24,481 nt of DNA, taken from Caedimonas varicaedens. Its GTDB lineage: Bacteria; Pseudomonadota; Alphaproteobacteria; Caedimonadales; Caedimonadaceae. Shown here in pieces: positions 3,653 through 14,611 of this stretch (the stretch's first letter is position 1; the number at the start of each line of letters is the position of its first letter). Below the pieces are notes generated by a model that worked only from the letters and a program-made list of their open reading frames with translations, did not search any database and was not told the DNA's origin. The translations under genes were made by a program, and so were the position numbers. The DNA is taken from contig BBVC01000015.1 of the NCBI GenBank assembly GCA_001192655.1, positions 1 to 24,481 of the forward strand. The letters are read 5' to 3'.

Positions 3653-5605
3653 TTGAATAGGGCTATGGTTTTAAAGTCTGCGAATATTTCACTAAAGCGC
3701 GCATTGCCTGATAATGATCCCTGGGCTGTTGTGCGACATTTTCTTTTTGGCCATCCTTTGAGAACCTCTTCCCAGGAAAAAGAAAGTTTAGGATTCTTTC
3801 TGGGACTCCCTATTTTGGCTATTGATGCGCTTTCTTCAGTGGCCTACGCGACTGAGGAAATTTTGATTGCCTTGTCTGTTGCCGGTACAAGTCTTTATGG
3901 GTTATCTATCCCTATTGCCATCGCCATTGTGATTCTGCTGACGTCTGTTATTGCTTCTTATACTCAAACAGTACAGGCCTATCCTGATGGGGGGGGCGCC
4001 TATACCATTGCCAAAAACCATTTAGGGTCTACGGCTTCTCTTGTTGCCGCTTCTTCTTTATTGATCGATTATATCCTCACTGTTTCTGTTTCTGTAACGG
4101 CAGGCGTTCGGGCGATTACTTCTTCGTATCCCTCTCTTTTAGATAAAAGCACCAGTTTATGCGTGTTGGGAATTCTTTCCCTGGCCTGGATCAATTTAAG
4201 AGGCATTCGTGAATCAGCCAAATTTGTGATGCCCTTTGTGTATGCTTTTATCGCTTGTATGCTGATGATTGGTGGTCTGGGTCTGTCAATTCCTTCACCT
4301 CAGGAAATAGGTCAGAGTGCGCCTGTTGCTTCTTCTGCTTCTCTCACCACACACTTGCTAGACCTGGCTATGATTCCCATTATTCTGCGAGCGTTTGCAG
4401 GGGGTTGTACAGCAATGACAGGAGTTGAAGCTATTGCCAATGCCGGCTCTATCCTGCGCAGACCTCATGCCGTCGTAGCACAGCGTATTTTACTTGCCCT
4501 GGGTCTTCTTTTGGGCATGATGTTTTTAAGTATCACAATCACTGCTTATCGTCTCAACCTCACGCCTCTTGAGAACGAAAGTCTGCTTTCTCAAGTCATC
4601 CGGGCTTTGTGGGGGGGTGGTTTTATTCATAACGCTACTCAAATCCTAATTGCCCTGATTCTTTTCTTAGCAGCCAATACAGCTTTCGCAGATGCTCCTC
4701 GCTTGAGCGCTATGCTTGCTCGTGATGGATGGTTCCCCAAACAGCTTTACATTATTGGAGATCGCCTTGTCTTCTCAAAAGGGATCCTTTTTCTTGCGCT
4801 TTTAGCGTCCCTGCTAGTGATCGTTTTTCGGGGTCAGGTGCATGCCCTGATCCCTTTGTATGCCATCGGGGTTTTCTCGGCCTTTACGCTTTCCCAGGCA
4901 GGTATGGTTCTGTATTGGCGGAATTGTTGGAGAACGGGCGGTAATCATCGGGGATCTTTTATTATTAAAGGAATGGTCAATGGTTTTGGCGCTTTTATGA
5001 CAGGTCTTGCCCTCATGGTCACTTTCGAAGCAAAATTTGCAGAGGGGGCTTTCCTGATTCTGATTGCTGTCCCTCTTATCATCCTATTTTGCCTATGGAT
5101 CAAGCGTCATTATACAGCAACGACAGAGCAGCTGGATGTCAGCAACAGTTTTATCTCTTCGCGCATACGAACCTTTGCACATAGTCAGGAACGTCCCATC
5201 ATTGTACCCATTTCGCGTTTGCATCGGGGAGCCGTTGAGGCGATTGCCTTTGCCCGGGAAATGTCTCGAGATGTGCGGATCGTGATTGTTGATATTGAAC
5301 GTTATAATGCACAGCAGACAATTATTGATGTTGAAGCGCTTCAGTGGGATTTAAAAATTATTGTTCTGTCTTCACCTTATCGTTCTATCATTCGTCCTAT
5401 CATTGATTATATTCATAGCGTCGACAAGGAATCCAAAAAGCTGGCGGTCTTGGTTTTGCCTGAAACAGTTCCTGTTCATTGGTGGGAAAATATTTTACAC
5501 AATAAAACTTCTGAAACCATTGTCAAAGCCTTGTCCTGGAGTGAAACAATCGAAAGTCAGGCAAGGATTATTATCAATGTGCCTTACTACCTTGAGAAAA
5601 ACTGA
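3653..5605 (+). CDS. APC-superfamily permease with C-terminal cytoplasmic domain, KimA/YdaO-like (probable K+/H+ symporter)
   Basis: The 650-aa ORF has about 12 TM segments. Blocks recalled from B. subtilis KimA: GHPLRT..E.L...L..L.IDALSSVAYATEEIL, AYPDGGGAYTIAKNHLG, LLIDYILTVSVSVTAG, LRAFAGGCTAMTGVEAIANA, LAANTAFADAPRL, GDRLVFSKGI, LIPLYAIGVF..FTLSQAGM, KRHYTATTEQL and WWENILHN. The track start 3653 is TTG; ATG at 3665 is an equally plausible start. Confidence 0.8.
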   Translation: MNRAMVLKSANISLKRALPDNDPWAVVRHFLFGHPLRTSSQEKESLGFFLGLPILAIDALSSVAYATEEILIALSVAGTSLYGLSIPIAIAIVILLTSVIASYTQTVQAYPDGGGAYTIAKNHLGSTASLVAASSLLIDYILTVSVSVTAGVRAITSSYPSLLDKSTSLCVLGILSLAWINLRGIRESAKFVMPFVYAFIACMLMIGGLGLSIPSPQEIGQSAPVASSASLTTHLLDLAMIPIILRAFAGGCTAMTGVEAIANAGSILRRPHAVVAQRILLALGLLLGMMFLSITITAYRLNLTPLENESLLSQVIRALWGGGFIHNATQILIALILFLAANTAFADAPRLSAMLARDGWFPKQLYIIGDRLVFSKGILFLALLASLLVIVFRGQVHALIPLYAIGVFSAFTLSQAGMVLYWRNCWRTGGNHRGSFIIKGMVNGFGAFMTGLALMVTFEAKFAEGAFLILIAVPLIILFCLWIKRHYTATTEQLDVSNSFISSRIRTFAHSQERPIIVPISRLHRGAVEAIAFAREMSRDVRIVIVDIERYNAQQTIIDVEALQWDLKIIVLSSPYRSIIRPIIDYIHSVDKESKKLAVLVLPETVPVHWWENILHNKTSETIVKALSWSETIESQARIIINVPYYLEKN

Positions 5606-7709: not shown

Positions 7710-8780
7710 TTACTTTGAAAAATTATTCATCAAGATATGCATGTTTTCAAAGAACTTTGAAGTCTTCTCCTTCAATTGAGCTAGAGAAGATTCCAGATTT
7801 TCTTTCATTTGATGAAGGCTTTGTATTTCCTCTTGAGCAGAAGCGACCGAGTCCTCATACAATGATTGCGCTTCTCTAATTTTCTCATCTTTTTTATTTA
7901 TCTCTTTTTCCATATTTTCATGGACCTGTGCTGTCTCTTTTAGTTTTTCCTCGAGTTTAACCTTCTCTTCTTCTTGAGAAGCTTTGTCTTTCAGTATTTG
8001 TGCATACTTATTAAAGAAAAATGCTTTCATCTCTTTTTTTGAAGAAAATTCTGGCAGTTCTGAATCGGGTAAAAGCTCTTTAAGTCGTTGAGCCCATTTA
8101 GTTTCTTCTAAATCTATCCCAAAAAGGTGCCGAAGTTTCTTCTCTTCCTTTGAATTAATAGATCCATATCGAAGATCTTCTCCCATAAGAATACTTTTTG
8201 GGATCACATAAGAAAATTCTTTTTCTGACAAAGAATTCAAAACATGCATGATGCCAAGCCTATTTAACAGCATATAAAGTGCGTTTGCTCTTGCATCATC
8301 AGTCCATTCACCATCTTTGAATTTCTCTCTAAAATGATGATCAATTGTAATTGCTCCGTCAGAAATATCTGAAATGTCAAATTGCCTATCATTGTCTTTA
8401 TTGATCATTTTGTTAAATAAAGTCTGTGGCCACACTTTCTCACCTTCACAATAACGCAAATCCCCTACAGTAATACCAAGCAGTGTTATTTCTCGATCTA
8501 GATCTAACTTTTGTACATAAGCTCCATATCGGCTCTCCATTAAAACTGAATACAACATTTTAGCCTTTTTATTTTCTTCAGCAGCATTATTCACTACCAG
8601 CTGATTATAGGTGAAAGTGACAGGGTCTTCATCAGGTCCCGTAAATAAGGGCGGCACACTAGAAGTATACGTGTACAATTTTTTTGTACCTTCATTTTCC
8701 CCTTCAAGCTGAGTGGATGCACAAACACTACTCGTAAGCAATAATGTACTGATGACAAAACGCAAAAATAACGACTGCAT
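7710..8780 (-). CDS. hypothetical secreted protein: signal peptide, globular domain, C-terminal Glu/Lys-rich coiled coil
   Basis: The 356-aa ORF begins MQSLFLRFVISTLLLTSSVCAS (signal-like). The last ~110 aa (KASQEEEKVKLEEKLKETAQVHENMEKEINKKDEKIREAQSLYED...LAQLKEKT) are heptad-like. The gene is visibly AT-richer than its neighbours. No family recognised. Confidence 0.7.
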   Translation of the reverse strand: MQSLFLRFVISTLLLTSSVCASTQLEGENEGTKKLYTYTSSVPPLFTGPDEDPVTFTYNQLVVNNAAEENKKAKMLYSVLMESRYGAYVQKLDLDREITLLGITVGDLRYCEGEKVWPQTLFNKMINKDNDRQFDISDISDGAITIDHHFREKFKDGEWTDDARANALYMLLNRLGIMHVLNSLSEKEFSYVIPKSILMGEDLRYGSINSKEEKKLRHLFGIDLEETKWAQRLKELLPDSELPEFSSKKEMKAFFFNKYAQILKDKASQEEEKVKLEEKLKETAQVHENMEKEINKKDEKIREAQSLYEDSVASAQEEIQSLHQMKENLESSLAQLKEKTSKFFENMHILMNNFSK

Positions 8781-9954: not shown

Positions 9955-10818
9955 ATGACGAGCTCTGCTCTCTTGCCTTTATGTGTTGATCTGGATGGCA
10001 CACTTATTCGCACAGATGTTTTGTCAGAAGCCCTTCTTGTTTATCTTAAAAAATCTCCCTGGAAAATATTCCATATCCTTTGGTGGTTCAGTCAGGGACG
10101 CGCCATGCTGAAGAAAAAAATCGCTGATGAAATTGATCTTGATATGTCGTTAATGCCCGTCAATCAGCAAATCGTTGATCTTGTCCTAAAATACAAGGCA
10201 AAGGGACACAAGATTTATTTAGTGACAGCCGCGCCTCAAAAATACGGACAGGCCGCCGCCACATATTTTGGATTTTTTGATGAAGTACTAACCAGCAACT
10301 CTTATATAAATCTTCGCTCAACTCACAAAGCAAAAGCTCTTATCGAACGGTTTGGTGAACAGCAATATATTTACGCGGGAAATTCTGTCCATGACTTGCC
10401 TGTGTGGGCGCATTCTTCTGAAATTATTGCGATTAACACGCCTCGAAAAGTTCTTGAAAAAGCATCTGTCATGAAAAAAAAAATGCACATTATGCACGAA
10501 GGGCTGACTGGGTGGACGGGATTGTTTCAGATCACCCATCCTTTTCATTGGATCCTTAATTTTGTCATTGTTCTTTCTGCCTTCTTTTTTGTTCACAAGG
10601 ACTTAAACAATGTTTTACCCGCTTTTATCGGTTTCAGTTTTTTAACGTCAGGCGTTTATATTTTGACAGACCTGTTCAGTATAAACCAGAATCGCCAATA
10701 TCTCTCGAAAAGCAAGAAACTTGTCGCATCAGGCAGCATTCCCATAGGCTCTGCAATACGATTCTCTCTTACGCTCATTATACTTGGCGTCGTCATCAGT
10801 TTATCCCTCATTTATTAG
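9955..10818 (+). CDS. HAD-IB-type phosphatase domain fused to the first ~100 aa of a UbiA-type prenyltransferase; 3'-truncated and probably non-functional
   Basis: The N-terminus LCVDLDGTLIRTD is HAD motif I. From about aa 190 there are TM helices. The region YILTDLFSINQNRQYLSKSKKLVASG aligns with the UbiA motif Y.LNDL.D...DR.HP.K..RP.A.G, but most Asp/Arg/Pro positions are replaced. The ORF ends after ~3 TM helices, and its TAG (10816-10818) is the first three bases of the IS terminal repeat. Confidence 0.6.
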   Translation: MTSSALLPLCVDLDGTLIRTDVLSEALLVYLKKSPWKIFHILWWFSQGRAMLKKKIADEIDLDMSLMPVNQQIVDLVLKYKAKGHKIYLVTAAPQKYGQAAATYFGFFDEVLTSNSYINLRSTHKAKALIERFGEQQYIYAGNSVHDLPVWAHSSEIIAINTPRKVLEKASVMKKKMHIMHEGLTGWTGLFQITHPFHWILNFVIVLSAFFFVHKDLNNVLPAFIGFSFLTSGVYILTDLFSINQNRQYLSKSKKLVASGSIPIGSAIRFSLTLIILGVVISLSLIY

Positions 10819-11330
10819 ACTTCTTTCGAAACTCAAAATAAGAGTTCAAAATTATAAATACCTGCTATTAAGTTGAACCTTAGAGCGAATCGTTTGCGTC
10901 TATTTCTGTATCGGTCAAAACGCTTATATCAGGGTGAATCCGAGTTTTTGACTCTTTAAACAAACGAAAATGTAGCCAGGTAAAGCAAAGACCGTATGCT
11001 TAACGTATCCTCAAACCCATTTCACGATCTTATAGGCTGTACTTTCACTGATTCCATAACTTTGACTAATATGAAAATACGTCCGATACTCTCTCAAGTA
11101 TTCCAACGCCCTTAACAACATATCTTCAATACAAAGCTTATTATTTCTGCCCTTTTTCTTCAGTTACTGGGCGTTAGTTAAAATCTCTACCATTTTATCA
11201 AATGTGGCATGTTTAATACCGGTTAAACGCCTGAATTTTTCTTCTGCTAATAATTGCGTCTCATGATGCCTCTGTAAAAGCATCACCCTACATAAAATTT
11301 ATCTAAAATTCTAGTTTCGAAAGAAGTCTA
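10816..11330 (-). mobile_element. degraded, internally deleted IS element (IS5-family / Harbinger-like HTH_Tnp_4-type transposase remnant)
   Basis: It is bounded by TAGACTTCTTTCGAAACT (10816-10833) and its reverse complement (11313-11330). Minus-strand translation gives MLLQRHHETQLLAEEKFRRLTGIKHATFDKMVEILTNAQ*LKKKGRNNKLCIEDMLLRALEYLREYRTYFHISQSYGISESTAYKIVKWV*GYVKHTVFALPG...TLI*AF*PIQK*. That is a recognisable transposase N-terminus with several in-frame stops and no DDE domain. TTAT flanks both ends (10812-10815, 11331-11334), a possible 4-bp target duplication. Confidence 0.75.
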
Positions 11331-11402
11331 TTATTATGAGAAGGGCTATTTTGTAAAGCTTGACTTTTTAACTGAGCATACCCATTTATATGACAGATAG
11401 GC

Positions 11403-12932
11403 ATGGAGTGTTGGATATTGGTTGTTAAAAATAAAATACGAGCCTTTATTTTAGGGGCGCTTATACTTTCATTTCTCAATGAAATAAACGCTTCTGATCT
11501 CGAAGAATACAAGTCTCAAGCAAAAAACGCTTCCGTTATCGTATATGGAAAATCACAAGATGGTGAGACGTATGTTTTACTAGCCCATGATAGAAGAGGA
11601 TTTTGGACTCCACCGGGCGGAAAAAGAGAAGCCAACCAATCAATTTTAGATACCGCAGCAGCAGAACTTTATGAAGAAACTGCCGCTTTTGATCTTTTTA
11701 ATCCCTCTAGAATAAAGCCTCTTTTGAAAAAACAACCGTTAAAAAGCGTTTTTAAATATAACGGACATACCGATTTATTTGCATTAAATATTGGGGATCA
11801 AATCGATCAATGTAAAAATATATCTCATAATTATAAAGAACGAGTTAAAGGAAAAAAGCACTCTTTTGATGAAATGAATAACTGGAAACTCTGCAAGGCA
11901 AATGATCTATTTAATTCACTTAAAGCGCATCCTCATACAGTAAACCAAGATACAATCCTTAATAAAATTGGTAAGTTGCCAAAATACGTTTTTAATAGTC
12001 TTTGGAGTTTTTACAATAACGGCTCTTTAGAAAATTTGATGAAAACGTCAACTATTTTATTAAGTCAAAAACAACAGAAGCAAAAAGAGCAAGAGATTGA
12101 TGCCTTTCTTTCTTCCCCGGAACGTCAGGCAATGCTCCGCAAAAATCAGAAAGAATTCTTCAAGCATCAACCAGAAGATTTTTTTGGGAAGCAACCAAAA
12201 AAGAAACAGACCCAAATAAAAGCGCCAGTAGCGCAGAAAGCAAAAACCTCTGCGCAGAAGAAAGCAGATGATGCAGCGCGTCAGTTAGCTGCGCAGAAGA
12301 AGAAAGCAGATGATGCGGCACGTCAGTTAGCTGCGCAGAAGAAGAAAGCAGATGATGCGGTACGTCAGTCCCACTTAGTCGCACAGCAGAAGAAAGCAGA
12401 TGATGCGGTACGTCAGTCCCACTTAGTCGCACAGCAGAAGAAAGCAGATGATGCGGTACGTCAGTCTCACTTAGTCGCACAGCAGAAGAAAGCAGATGAT
12501 GCGGTACGTCAGTCCCACTTAGTCGCACAGCAGAAGAAAGCAGATGATGCGGTACGTCAGTCTCACTTAGTCGCACAGCAGAAGAAAGCAGATGATGCAG
12601 CGCGTCAGTTAGCTGCGCAGAAGAAGAAAGTAGATGATGAAGTGCGCCAGAAGCAGGCTCAATTAGCTCAATTAGCCACACAGAAGAAGAAAGCCCAGGC
12701 AGTAGCAGCGCAGAGAGCAGCGGCACAAAAGGCAAGAACATTGAAGGCAGCTGCACTGAAGAAAGCCCAGGCAGTAGCAGCGCAGAGAGCAGCGGCACAA
12801 AAGGCAAGAACATTGAAGGCAGCTGCACTGAAGAAAGCCCAGGCAGTAGCGGCACAGAGGAAGGCAAAAGCATTGAAGAAAGCCCAGGCAGTAGCGGCAC
12901 AGAGGAAGGCAAAAGCATTGAAGAAAGCATAA
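11403..12932 (+). CDS. signal-peptide protein with a Nudix-hydrolase-like domain and a long C-terminal Lys/Ala/Gln/Asp tandem-repeat region
   Basis: The 509-aa ORF has N-terminal KNKIRAFILGALILSFLNEINA/SD (signal-like). PPGGKREANQSILDTAAAELYEETAA fits the Nudix box GX5EX7REUXEEXGU, except R->A and the last G->A. From about aa 284 to the C-terminus there are two families of in-frame tandem repeats. Confidence 0.8.
   Translation: MECWILVVKNKIRAFILGALILSFLNEINASDLEEYKSQAKNASVIVYGKSQDGETYVLLAHDRRGFWTPPGGKREANQSILDTAAAELYEETAAFDLFNPSRIKPLLKKQPLKSVFKYNGHTDLFALNIGDQIDQCKNISHNYKERVKGKKHSFDEMNNWKLCKANDLFNSLKAHPHTVNQDTILNKIGKLPKYVFNSLWSFYNNGSLENLMKTSTILLSQKQQKQKEQEIDAFLSSPERQAMLRKNQKEFFKHQPEDFFGKQPKKKQTQIKAPVAQKAKTSAQKKADDAARQLAAQKKKADDAARQLAAQKKKADDAVRQSHLVAQQKKADDAVRQSHLVAQQKKADDAVRQSHLVAQQKKADDAVRQSHLVAQQKKADDAVRQSHLVAQQKKADDAARQLAAQKKKVDDEVRQKQAQLAQLATQKKKAQAVAAQRAAAQKARTLKAAALKKAQAVAAQRAAAQKARTLKAAALKKAQAVAAQRKAKALKKAQAVAAQRKAKALKKA
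12252..12677 (+). repeat. in-frame tandem repeat family 1 (nine units; 39/42/48/63 bp)
   Basis: Units start at 12252, 12291, 12333, 12381, 12429, 12477, 12525, 12573 and 12615. The five 48-bp units (12333-12572) encode AQ(K/Q)KKADDAVRQSHLV; the four from 12381 onward differ only by a synonymous TCC/TCT, while the first (12333) also differs in its first three codons. The 42-bp variants encode AQKKKADDAARQLA. Confidence 0.95.
12687..12920 (+). repeat. in-frame tandem repeat family 2 (2 x 72 bp, then 2 x 45 bp)
   Basis: 12687-12758 and 12759-12830 encode KKAQAVAAQRAAAQKARTLKAAAL. 12831-12875 and 12876-12920 encode KKAQAVAAQRKAKAL. Within each pair the copies are identical by eye. Confidence 0.95.
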
Positions 12933-13027
12933 ATGAAGCGGGGCCGCACACCGCCAAAAGCAGGCTTGTCTAGCTTGAACGTTTAGTCAAATATTTTATG
13001 AACTATAAAACATCCAACCAAGTATAT

Positions 13028-13314
13028 AATAGACTTCTTTCGAAACTCATAACAGGATTTCAAAATTATTGCTGATCGGTATAGAAATAGACACAAACGC
13101 TTTGCTCTAAGATTCAACTTATAGCTCTTTTCATAATAGTCCAGACTAATGTAAATACCTGATCTATGATTCTTTTCCCAAGAACATGAATTTGAATTCT
13201 ATAGGAGAAGTTTTAAATCAATGCGCCTAAGAGTTCAGACTATTATGAAAAGGGCTATAATATCAATTATCTATAATTTTGAAATCCTGTTATGAGTTTC
13301 GAAAGAAGTCTATT
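13028..13314. mobile_element. non-coding MITE-like element related to the IS at 10816-11330
   Basis: It has perfect 42-bp terminal inverted repeats: AATAGACTTCTTTCGAAACTCATAACAGGATTTCAAAATTAT at 13028-13069 and its reverse complement at 13273-13314. These share the 18-nt terminus of the IS. 13074-13125 resembles the inverted 10864-10916. An inner 21-bp inverted repeat lies at 13121-13141 / 13238-13258 with one mismatch. There is no ORF. Confidence 0.8.
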
Positions 13315-13342: not shown

Positions 13343-14611
13343 TCAAGCCGCTGCCTTGACACCAAGGCGTTGACAAAGTTTTTCATAAGACATCAGATGT
13401 TGCACAGGCCCCACCGCAGTAAGAGTCGGAGTCCCTGAAAAGATTCGGGTCGCCAGCTTTGCAATATCCTGTTCTTCAACAGCATCAATACGGTCAATAA
13501 TCTCGGATGAATCCAGGGGACGACCATAAACCATCATTTGGAAAGCCAGTTGTCGACAACGTGAAGATGTGCTTTCAAGCGCCATCAAGAGTGAGGCTTT
13601 AAGTTGATTCCTGGATCTTGAAATTTCTTTCTCGGTAAGCGTTGAAGATACCTTGAGAAGTTCATCACAAACAACCGGTAAAAGGTCTTGTGCTTCTTTT
13701 GGTCCCGCGCTGGTATAAATACCGAAAGTACCAGTGTCTAGTGCAGAGGAAGAAAAACTATGAACGCCATAGGCAAGCCCTCTTTTTTCTCGAATCTCCT
13801 GGAAAAGGCGAGAAGACATCCCTCCCCCTAAAATAGTTGCAAGCATAGAAGCTGTATAATAATCAGGGCTATTCAGATCAATTCCTTGGAAACCCAAAAC
13901 TAGGTGAACTTGTTCAAGATTTTTTTGAAGTGTAAAGTAACCACCTGTATAACGTGCAGGCTCTCCAGAGCGTGTAGTTTCAGAGGCCAACAAGCTGAAT
14001 TGGTTTTCCATCATAGAGACAAGTTGCTGATGGTCAACTTTTCCTGCCGCCGCAAAAATCATATTTTTAGCGCTATAATTTTTCGTCATGTATGTTTTTA
14101 TTTGCTCACGGCTGAGCTTTGAGACCACATCTGCTCTACCGGTAATGGGACGTCCAAAGGGCTGATCAGAATAGGCCGTTTCTTGAAAACAATCAAAAGT
14201 CAAATCATCAGGTGCATCCTGAACCTGACTGATTTCCTGCAAAATGACCGCACGTTCGCGCTCCAACTCTTCCTCGCGAAAAACAGAAAACTGCAAAATA
14301 TCTGCAAGAATAGAGAGAGCCAACGGCTTATTATGCAGAATACGTGCATAATAAGCCGTTGATTCCCGCGAAGTGTAGGCATTCAAATGCCCCCCTACAG
14401 CTTCAATTTTTTCAGCTATTTCCTGTGCTGTCTGAGTAGCCGTTCCCCGAAAAGCCATGTGTTCAAGCATATGGGAAATACCATTAATTTCTTTTGTTTC
14501 ATGACGAGAGCCAACACTGACCCATAACCCCAATGCGACTGTTTCTACGCTATCAAAATAATCCGTTACAATCGTTAAACCATTCGAAAGCGTTGATAAT
14601 TGAATCGTCAT
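13343..14611 (-). CDS. M16 family zinc peptidase (mitochondrial-processing-peptidase-like)
   Basis: The 422-aa ORF has the inverted zinc motif HxxEH in GISHMLEHMAFRGT. It has the two-domain M16 layout typical of alphaproteobacterial MPP-like proteases. Confidence 0.9.
   Translation of the reverse strand: MTIQLSTLSNGLTIVTDYFDSVETVALGLWVSVGSRHETKEINGISHMLEHMAFRGTATQTAQEIAEKIEAVGGHLNAYTSRESTAYYARILHNKPLALSILADILQFSVFREEELERERAVILQEISQVQDAPDDLTFDCFQETAYSDQPFGRPITGRADVVSKLSREQIKTYMTKNYSAKNMIFAAAGKVDHQQLVSMMENQFSLLASETTRSGEPARYTGGYFTLQKNLEQVHLVLGFQGIDLNSPDYYTASMLATILGGGMSSRLFQEIREKRGLAYGVHSFSSSALDTGTFGIYTSAGPKEAQDLLPVVCDELLKVSSTLTEKEISRSRNQLKASLLMALESTSSRCRQLAFQMMVYGRPLDSSEIIDRIDAVEEQDIAKLATRIFSGTPTLTAVGPVQHLMSYEKLCQRLGVKAAA

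Follow-up and report, generated by a model that had tools for sequence, protein, structure and literature searches.

Composite transposons such as Tn5, Tn9 and Tn10 carry passenger DNA between two related elements derived from insertion sequences (IS). Their limits are set by the outer IS ends and a target duplication of IS-typical length, and the inner ends have no matching duplications. A block with this layout lies in contig BBVC01000015.1 of Caedimonas varicaedens, the whole of which (24,481 bp, hereafter the window) was analysed. It consists of one gene, encoding a Nudix-fold protein, bracketed by an IS remnant (element A) and, in inverted orientation, a probable miniature inverted-repeat transposable element (MITE) of the same IS (element B). 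We consider it probable (roughly 0.6) that positions 10817–13311 are a 2.5-kb composite transposon that entered, as a single unit, the 26-bp spacer separating a HAD-family gene from an M16 peptidase gene. There is good support for a real insertion of composite-transposon type, which varies in presence among natural populations and which the decay of its IS arm has since immobilised. The block differs from Tn5, Tn9 and Tn10 in its unequal arms, IS remnant and MITE, neither of which now encodes a transposase, in a cargo that is neither a resistance nor a catabolic gene, and in being known from one site. It is otherwise an ordinary composite transposon, with clear evidence and an unusual cargo, and involves no new mechanism.

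Composite units bounded by MITEs are an established class, recognised by duplications outside the outermost inverted repeats (PMC13367494). The TIME-COMPs, including the integron mobilization unit, share several features with the present block: a non-autonomous miniature arm, mobilisation in trans, a nested insertion in one arm, and past transposition deduced from direct repeats outside the outermost inverted repeats (PMC13367494). They differ, however, in belonging to the Tn3 family, transposing replicatively with 5–6-bp repeats and carrying resistance genes on enterobacterial plasmids, whereas the unit described here is of the IS5 family, chromosomal and alphaproteobacterial, with a 3-bp repeat and a single MITE arm. 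The block matches the features from which past transposition of units bounded by miniature elements is deduced in that literature (PMC13367494).

The IS arm resembles ISCaa3, which is placed in the ISL2 group of the IS5 family and described as horizontally transferred among intracellular bacteria (PMC3196728). ISCaa3 and other ISL2-group elements measure ~0.9 kb and encode a transposase of ~275 amino acids (aa) with HTH_Tnp_4 and DDE domains, as does the parent IS of the block, and the passages of that account consulted here describe no composite unit with cargo for ISCaa3. In the full-length copies retrieved (loci L079 and L035) the transposase is split in two open reading frames (ORFs; 138–139 and 124–126 aa). 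Relatives occur in Orientia, Legionella, chlamydiae, Wolbachia, Amoebophilus and Paracaedibacter, and decayed copies are common. What the present locus offers is a population-level before-and-after view of a composite transposon outside the setting of plasmids and antibiotic resistance, covering the exact empty site, the duplication, two alleles that record the later decay of one arm, a MITE nested in the other arm and a leftover of the donor site.

Four exact occurrences of the 18-nt terminus TAGACTTCTTTCGAAACT lie in the window, at 10816–10833 and 13030–13047 on the plus strand and at 11313–11330 and 13295–13312 on the minus strand. These are the same four positions as reported in the original prediction, an earlier reading of this DNA, and no further match with up to three mismatches was found in the window (0 expected from shuffles). 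The ends delimit element A (10816–11330) and element B (13030–13312), with one gene between them (Table 1). That the two copies face opposite ways around this gene, as had been proposed, is borne out in two ways. A 49-nt stretch of A (10869–10917) is present inverted in B (13073–13121) with 86% identity, and tblastn places the transposase remnants of A on the minus strand and the remnant of B on the plus strand. B is indeed bounded by the ends, as the same reading had it, but its size and repeat length needed correction from 287 to 283 bp and from 42 to 40 nt respectively; the count of 42 includes two flanking target bases, and 40 nt are counted from TAGAC. The inverted repeats of the block are the sole substantial ones across the 24-kb window, and its outermost ends, which are of the same end type, form the best long inverted repeat therein (61 nt, 84%). 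Nothing informative about the block came from scans for promoters and terminators or from a search of Rfam.

The inner ends of A and B taken with four flanking bases (11313–11334 and 13026–13047) are perfectly complementary over 22 nt, although one flanking base differs in a second occupied contig (L125, described below). This is probably target preference plus chance. An intramolecular inversion, which the complementary inner flanks brought to mind, was rejected as it cannot create an insertion relative to an empty site and as the complementarity is weaker in L125.

Table 1. Features of the inserted block and of the genes on either side of it; coordinates refer to the 24,481-bp window.
Feature	Coordinates	Strand	Evidence and remarks
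HAD-family gene, 287 aa, intact	9955–10818	+	Pfam HAD; NCBIfam PRK08238, positions 9–293 of 482
Left target duplication, ATT	10814–10816		Comparison of empty and occupied sites
Element A	10817–11329	-	IS5-family remnant; transposase N-terminus at right end
Lone MITE C end	11332–11349	-	Adjoins right end of A; pattern ATAGCYCTTYTCATAATA
Cargo gene, 509 aa	11403–12932	+	Pfam NUDIX; signal-peptide-like N-terminus; tandem-repeat tail
Element B (probable MITE)	13031–13311	+	Perfect 40-nt terminal inverted repeat; orfB remnant; MITE C inside
MITE C	13122–13257		136 bp; terminal inverted repeats of ~21 nt (ATAGCYCTTTTCATAATAGTC); TA duplications at 13120–13121 and 13258–13259
Right target duplication, ATT	13312–13314		Comparison of empty and occupied sites
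M16 peptidase gene, intact, convergent with HAD gene	13343–14611	-	Pfam Peptidase_M16 and Peptidase_M16_C

The site is empty, by sequence, in 13 conspecific metagenome contigs (L121–L123 and L129–L138), which were reached through the closest homologues of the window's HAD protein. L121–L123 share ~97% DNA identity with the window, and L129–L138 have junction flanks identical to those of the window and an HAD allele found on 21 contigs. In all 13 the HAD gene is followed by 26 bp and then by the convergent M16 gene, with A, the Nudix gene and B all missing; the empty site for which the original prediction had suggested looking exists, and the HAD/M16 spacer is intact in these strains. The empty site reads CCCTCATTTATTGAATTC (CCCTCATTTATTGAATTCGAGAGG in the longer reading from L129–L138). 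The occupied site reads CATTT-ATT-AGACTTC...GAAGTCT-ATT-GAATTC, or with wider flanks CCCTCATTT-ATT-AGACTTC ... GAAGTCT-ATT-GAATTCGAGAGG. Insertion of the 2.5-kb block thus duplicated 3 bp of target, ATT (at most TATT). Target duplications of the IS5 family are usually 2–3 bp (ISfinder). A TA duplication of IS630-like type was considered for A and B and rejected, as the observed empty site is 3 bp shorter than such a duplication would require. Relatives carrying the Nudix gene at this locus but lacking the elements were not seen among the retrieved contigs, including a relative at 80% DNA identity.

A second occupied allele, on L125, comes from a different metagenome and an independent assembly, and has the identical left junction, element A and cargo gene, with A being 167 bp longer. 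On the right of A this contig has ACT, matching the consensus of MITE C (a second probable MITE, nested in B), where the window has ATT. Since the ACT of L125 and its adjoining bases match the end of MITE C, the ATT of the window looks like a later point change, and A was likely flanked in the ancestor by ATT on the left and by ACT on the right. B, too, has unlike flanks, AAT on the left and ATT on the right. Hence A (ATT/ACT in L125) and B (AAT/ATT) have no private duplications, and neither inserted here alone; the duplicated target is common to the outermost flank pair only. The composite-transposon geometry proposed earlier is upheld by these alleles, in which the block behaves as one inserted unit, its parts absent together and ATT duplicated at the outer ends. 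At 5364–5483, L125 leaves the repeat tail of the Nudix gene for 120 bp of unrelated DNA with a hairpin (GATACTCCCCGCAGCAGAGCTACGGGGTATC) absent from the window. Either that strain has a further insertion here or the assembly was wrongly joined inside the repeats.

Element A is an internally deleted, stop-containing remnant of an IS of ~910 bp, ISCaa3-like and of the ISL2 group of the IS5 family. Compared with the full-length copy L079 by tblastn, it retains orfA residues 9–103 with two in-frame stops on the minus strand and scraps of orfB (residues 21–41 and 98–122), the catalytic core being deleted. The earlier description of A as a stop-riddled remnant of an IS5-type transposase on the minus strand agrees with both the tblastn results and the family profiles. 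In the full-length copies, paired ends 911 bp (L079) or 923 bp (L035) apart enclose the two ORFs, which overlap and match NCBIfam NF033581 (IS5 family), Pfam HTH_Tnp_4 (PF13613) and DDE_Tnp_4 (PF13359)/DDE_Tnp_1. The reconstructed transposase matches proteins of 273–275 aa annotated as IS5 family transposase from Chlamydiae, Neochlamydia, Orientia, Legionella anisa, Wolbachia and Holosporales in the protein database, and is 51% identical to an ISCaa3 family transposase of Amoebophilus. Identity of A to named full-length transposases is 51–64%. For orfA the nearest named protein is from Candidatus Paracaedibacter acanthamoebae (78%), and the nearest gene calls consisting of orfA only are 145 aa long.

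Exact matches to the 18-nt end were found at at least 120 loci in a collection of species-representative genomes (chlamydiae, Legionella, Rickettsiales, Wolbachia, Francisellaceae and others), the source organism being absent among the matches listed, from which no donor site emerged. Also among the matches listed were 15 paired copies with both flanks, whose flanking triplets fit A-N-T; the two triplets were identical in eight and shared the central base in 11 of the 15. The metagenome collection yielded two further loci with the 40-nt terminal inverted repeat of the subfamily, both degraded, in answer to the suggestion that other copies of the ends be sought. One (L127, the same locus as L139) is a 583-bp deletion derivative with an intact orfA (145 aa) and AAT on both sides, and the other (L128) is a truncated end. 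A 3-bp A-N-T duplication is accordingly seen at the site described here, in L127/L139 and in eight of the 15 paired copies listed.

Some further observations concern these ends. The 18-nt end bounds several unrelated MITE families of 56–167 bp in metagenome-assembled genomes (MAGs) labelled Rickettsiales, Burkholderiales and Parachlamydiaceae (among the matches listed, L015, L016, L028, L037, L040, L046, L051, L065, L077, L096, L101 and L116), whose interiors do not align with B, nor mostly with one another. The ends are far more conserved than the enzyme, transposases of the parent family being only ~50–65% identical. In L127/L139 and L140 the deleted IS copy adjoins remnants of IS6/IS240-family transposases, and L139, a 31-kb contig, also encodes the type VI secretion protein TssG.

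Element B contains MITE C, visible as a second inverted-repeat pair at 13112–13141 and 13238–13267. Excision of MITE C and one TA restores the IS sequence (TAT followed by TAAGTTGAA) and leaves a B core of 145 bp, which is made up of ~105 bp of the IS end encoding the transposase C-terminus and an inverted 40-nt copy of that end. Once 13122–13259 is taken out, B aligns colinearly with the left end of A and with those of L125 and L079, and this colinearity together with the inverted copy indicates that B is a MITE built from one IS end. Its plus strand still carries orfB residues 93–113, a 21-codon remnant of the transposase C-terminus identified by tblastn. The B core has mismatched flanks, and a second copy of it was not found in the collections searched. 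Membership of B in the 139–167-bp MITEs from other phyla was rejected, as the 18-nt ends alone are held in common.

The 18-nt end of MITE C, ATAGCYCTTYTCATAATA, occurs three times in the window against 0.12 expected, each time within the block. Two of these occurrences belong to MITE C itself and the third is the lone end to the right of A, which has no partner on the left side of A. A missing partner is expected if the left flank of A stayed behind at the donor site. In L125 the match to the ends of MITE C reaches 20 nt, right up to the end of A; besides L125, no MITE C matches were found in the retrieved loci, and no parent IS was identified for it.

The cargo was described in the original prediction as a Nudix-like protein with a signal peptide and a tandem-repeat tail rather than a resistance gene, and the Pfam match, the repeats and the fold model all concur. 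Pfam NUDIX scores 29.2 bits against a gathering cut-off of 21.1, with the Nudix-fold domain at about residues 42–210. Read by eye, the N-terminus resembles a signal peptide, with a basic n-region, a hydrophobic core of 12 residues and the motif INA/S. The C-terminal tail is rich in Lys, Ala and Gln and is encoded by tandem repeats of 48, 72 and 45 nt (12254–12928). An AlphaFold2 model built with 13 sequences reached a predicted local distance difference test score (pLDDT) of 92.7; an earlier prediction from four sequences (pLDDT 42) was not used for the fold search. The Foldseek matches listed from the PDB were almost all Nudix enzymes, including CoA pyrophosphatase, Ap4A hydrolase, NUDT16, Dcp2 and DIPP (best E-value 5.6e-6, modest TM scores of 0.31–0.53 on query length), and the predicted structure is a true Nudix fold. 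Relative to the canonical Nudix box, GX5EX7REUXEEXGU, the window protein has Gln79 in place of the first Glu, Ala87 in place of Arg and Ala94 in place of the final Gly, whereas the core residues Glu88, Glu91 and Glu92 are invariant across the 13-member alignment. Catalytic activity is uncertain given the loss of the first Glu, the Arg and the last Gly and the retention of the three core Glu.

The cargo family is very rare. A word-indexed search of 5.8 billion clusters returned three homologues, and an exhaustive HMMER scan of 1.84 billion representatives returned 12 (E ≤ 1e-10). Nearly all homologues have signal-peptide-like N-termini, and their C-terminal tails are unrelated and often repetitive. 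Exact-protein look-ups of the window Nudix, M16 and HAD proteins gave nothing, and context was taken from homologues instead. At ≥90% identity the cargo was found on two contigs only, the window and L125, both at the same site, whilst the HAD allele cluster is carried by more than 30 conspecific contigs. The search for the gene elsewhere between the same ends, suggested in the original prediction, came back empty: the 57%-identical homologue lies in another chromosomal context, between an EamA gene and citrate synthase, and is not accompanied by IS ends. As the MAG with this homologue also encodes a 61%-identical HAD homologue, the Nudix family seems to be native to the lineage of this bacterium and to have been mobilised at the present locus.

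Secreted Nudix effectors are known from plant pathogens (PMC4981494, PMC6637912). Like Avr3b, RipN and the fungal Nudix effectors described there, the cargo combines a Nudix fold with an export signal, and the mobile elements point to a host-associated lifestyle, which for this bacterium we infer. It is unlike them in that no sequence relationship was detected beyond the Nudix box, itself degenerate here, and in that its export signal is Sec-like rather than type III or RxLR. Going by its N-terminus the protein may be secreted, and the analogy with plant-pathogen Nudix effectors would suggest an effector-like role; the cargo is probably a host- or envelope-directed factor. The locus in any case flags a very small, previously uncharacterised Nudix-fold family with signal-peptide-like N-termini as a candidate for a role in host interaction.

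The history of the block as a composite transposon may be reconstructed as follows. An ISCaa3-like IS, now dead (A), would have formed one boundary of the unit and an inverted MITE of the same IS (B) the other, A having previously inserted into a copy of MITE C at the donor locus. Transposase, supplied by the then-intact A or in trans by another copy, would have used the outermost pair of ends in one event and joined this pair to an A-N-T target cut in staggered fashion, thereby duplicating ATT. The unit would have brought with it the gene for a Nudix-fold protein with a Sec-type signal and a fast-evolving repeat tail, as well as the scrap of MITE C. After insertion A appears to have decayed through point mutations and two successive deletions, and this decay would immobilise the unit unless transposase were provided in trans.

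Several points weigh against such a history. A 3-bp A-N-T duplication carries little information by itself, and the weight comes from the comparison with the empty sites. The right junction, from B to M16, is seen in the window contig alone, and a single insertion site is known for the unit. A master copy with an intact transposase, which the original prediction had suggested seeking, was not found in the genome, metagenome or protein collections searched: the protein collection held no intact transposase close to A, the best full-length proteins being at most 64% identical, and the orfA matches at 98–100% identity are the 583-bp deleted copy of L127. The plasmid collection gave weak IS-only matches and nothing more.

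An identical end product, its duplication likewise lying beyond the outer ends, would result if a single IS or MITE had inserted at ATT and a double crossover in the terminal homologies had then swapped in A, the cargo and B. For units bounded by MITESen1, found at positions that in other plasmids are occupied by one MITE, a similar route has been put forward (PMC13367494). However, no allele with a single element was seen among the 13 empty sites and two occupied contigs, the homology available between A-left-type and B-type ends is short (~40–100 bp) and 84–90% identical, and an extra event is needed as well as a donor of A, cargo and B. Integration of a circle by single crossover would in turn give direct, equivalent copies, not an inverted IS remnant and MITE. 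We regard such a two-step origin as unlikely. That the Nudix gene was resident or otherwise acquired, with A and B inserting separately beside it, is very improbable. The window's A, with ATT on both sides, might be taken to have a private duplication, but the right flank is ACT in L125, making ATT/ATT a later change, and the flanks of B differ. Moreover, none of the empty-site contigs, nor the relative at 80% identity, has the gene or either element, and the DNA adjoining A on its right and B on its left does not come from the HAD/M16 spacer. Nor do the elements behave as independent insertions of an abundant, randomly placed MITE, as the metagenome collection yielded just two further, degraded copies of the subfamily and the rest of the window none.

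The window is an entire contig, IS ends are classic chimera points, and L125 ends within the repeat tail with unrelated sequence, all of which would suit an assembly artefact joined through repeated IS ends. A chimera would not, however, place both outer junctions at the same spacer nucleotide with an exact duplication and colinear flanks, and L125, from another sample and another assembler, repeats the left junction, A and 1.4 kb of the cargo; an artefact is hence the most improbable of the explanations considered. A bolder possibility is that the block is a still-mobilisable, cross-phylum effector cassette, by which protist-associated bacteria of different strains, and possibly of different species, exchange a secreted Nudix-fold protein that acts on the host. 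As the exact 18-nt end is common to chlamydiae, legionellae, rickettsiae and others, the unit might be moved through these ends by whichever ISCaa3-type transposase is co-resident in a shared host cell. We think this decidedly unlikely.

The composite insertion left the neighbouring genes intact. In the 26-bp spacer it changed the HAD stop codon from TGA to TAG without altering the length of the protein, the new stop (10816–10818) being made of the last target T and the first two bases of the element, AG. The M16 stop codon is 28 bp from the right duplication, exactly as noted earlier. An IS remnant and MITE hybrid can thus deliver a gene for a putatively secreted, fast-evolving protein without harm to its neighbours.

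The earlier proposal, in which the block took the place of a missing 3' two-thirds of the HAD-UbiA gene, is refuted. The HAD protein is 287 aa long in all empty-site contigs and 291 aa in the relative at 80% DNA identity, and no full-length HAD-UbiA gene (~480 aa) was found at the syntenic site in any relative. The window protein carries a degenerate N-terminal piece of the UbiA domain, in which the Asp-rich motif NDxxDxxxD has become TDLFSINQN. Homologues at 40–51% identity (308–322 aa, mostly on long contigs) end similarly, after the second membrane helix. The short architecture of HAD plus two helices (287–338 aa) is kept down to ~40% identity, compared with ~480 aa for full-length HAD-UbiA fusions. 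The short form looks like an old domain loss with retention of the membrane anchor. The comparison corrects a tempting misreading, as the short HAD-'UbiA' gene is an old conserved architecture and not insertion damage.

Elsewhere, the window encodes an alphaproteobacterial F1-ATPase inhibitor zeta subunit (PF07345), a related HAD protein is labelled Alphaproteobacteria, and the nearest named orfA is that of Candidatus Paracaedibacter acanthamoebae; a Holosporales-like, protist-associated bacterium is plausible. A second strain-variable and possibly secreted gene lies 2 kb from the insertion. This ORF (7710–8780, minus strand) has a signal-peptide-like N-terminus, coiled-coil-like sequence and no Pfam match, and differs between strains, encoding 356 aa in the window, 380 aa in L129 and 155 aa in L121 and L123, where a 541-bp deletion (8118–8658) has shortened it.

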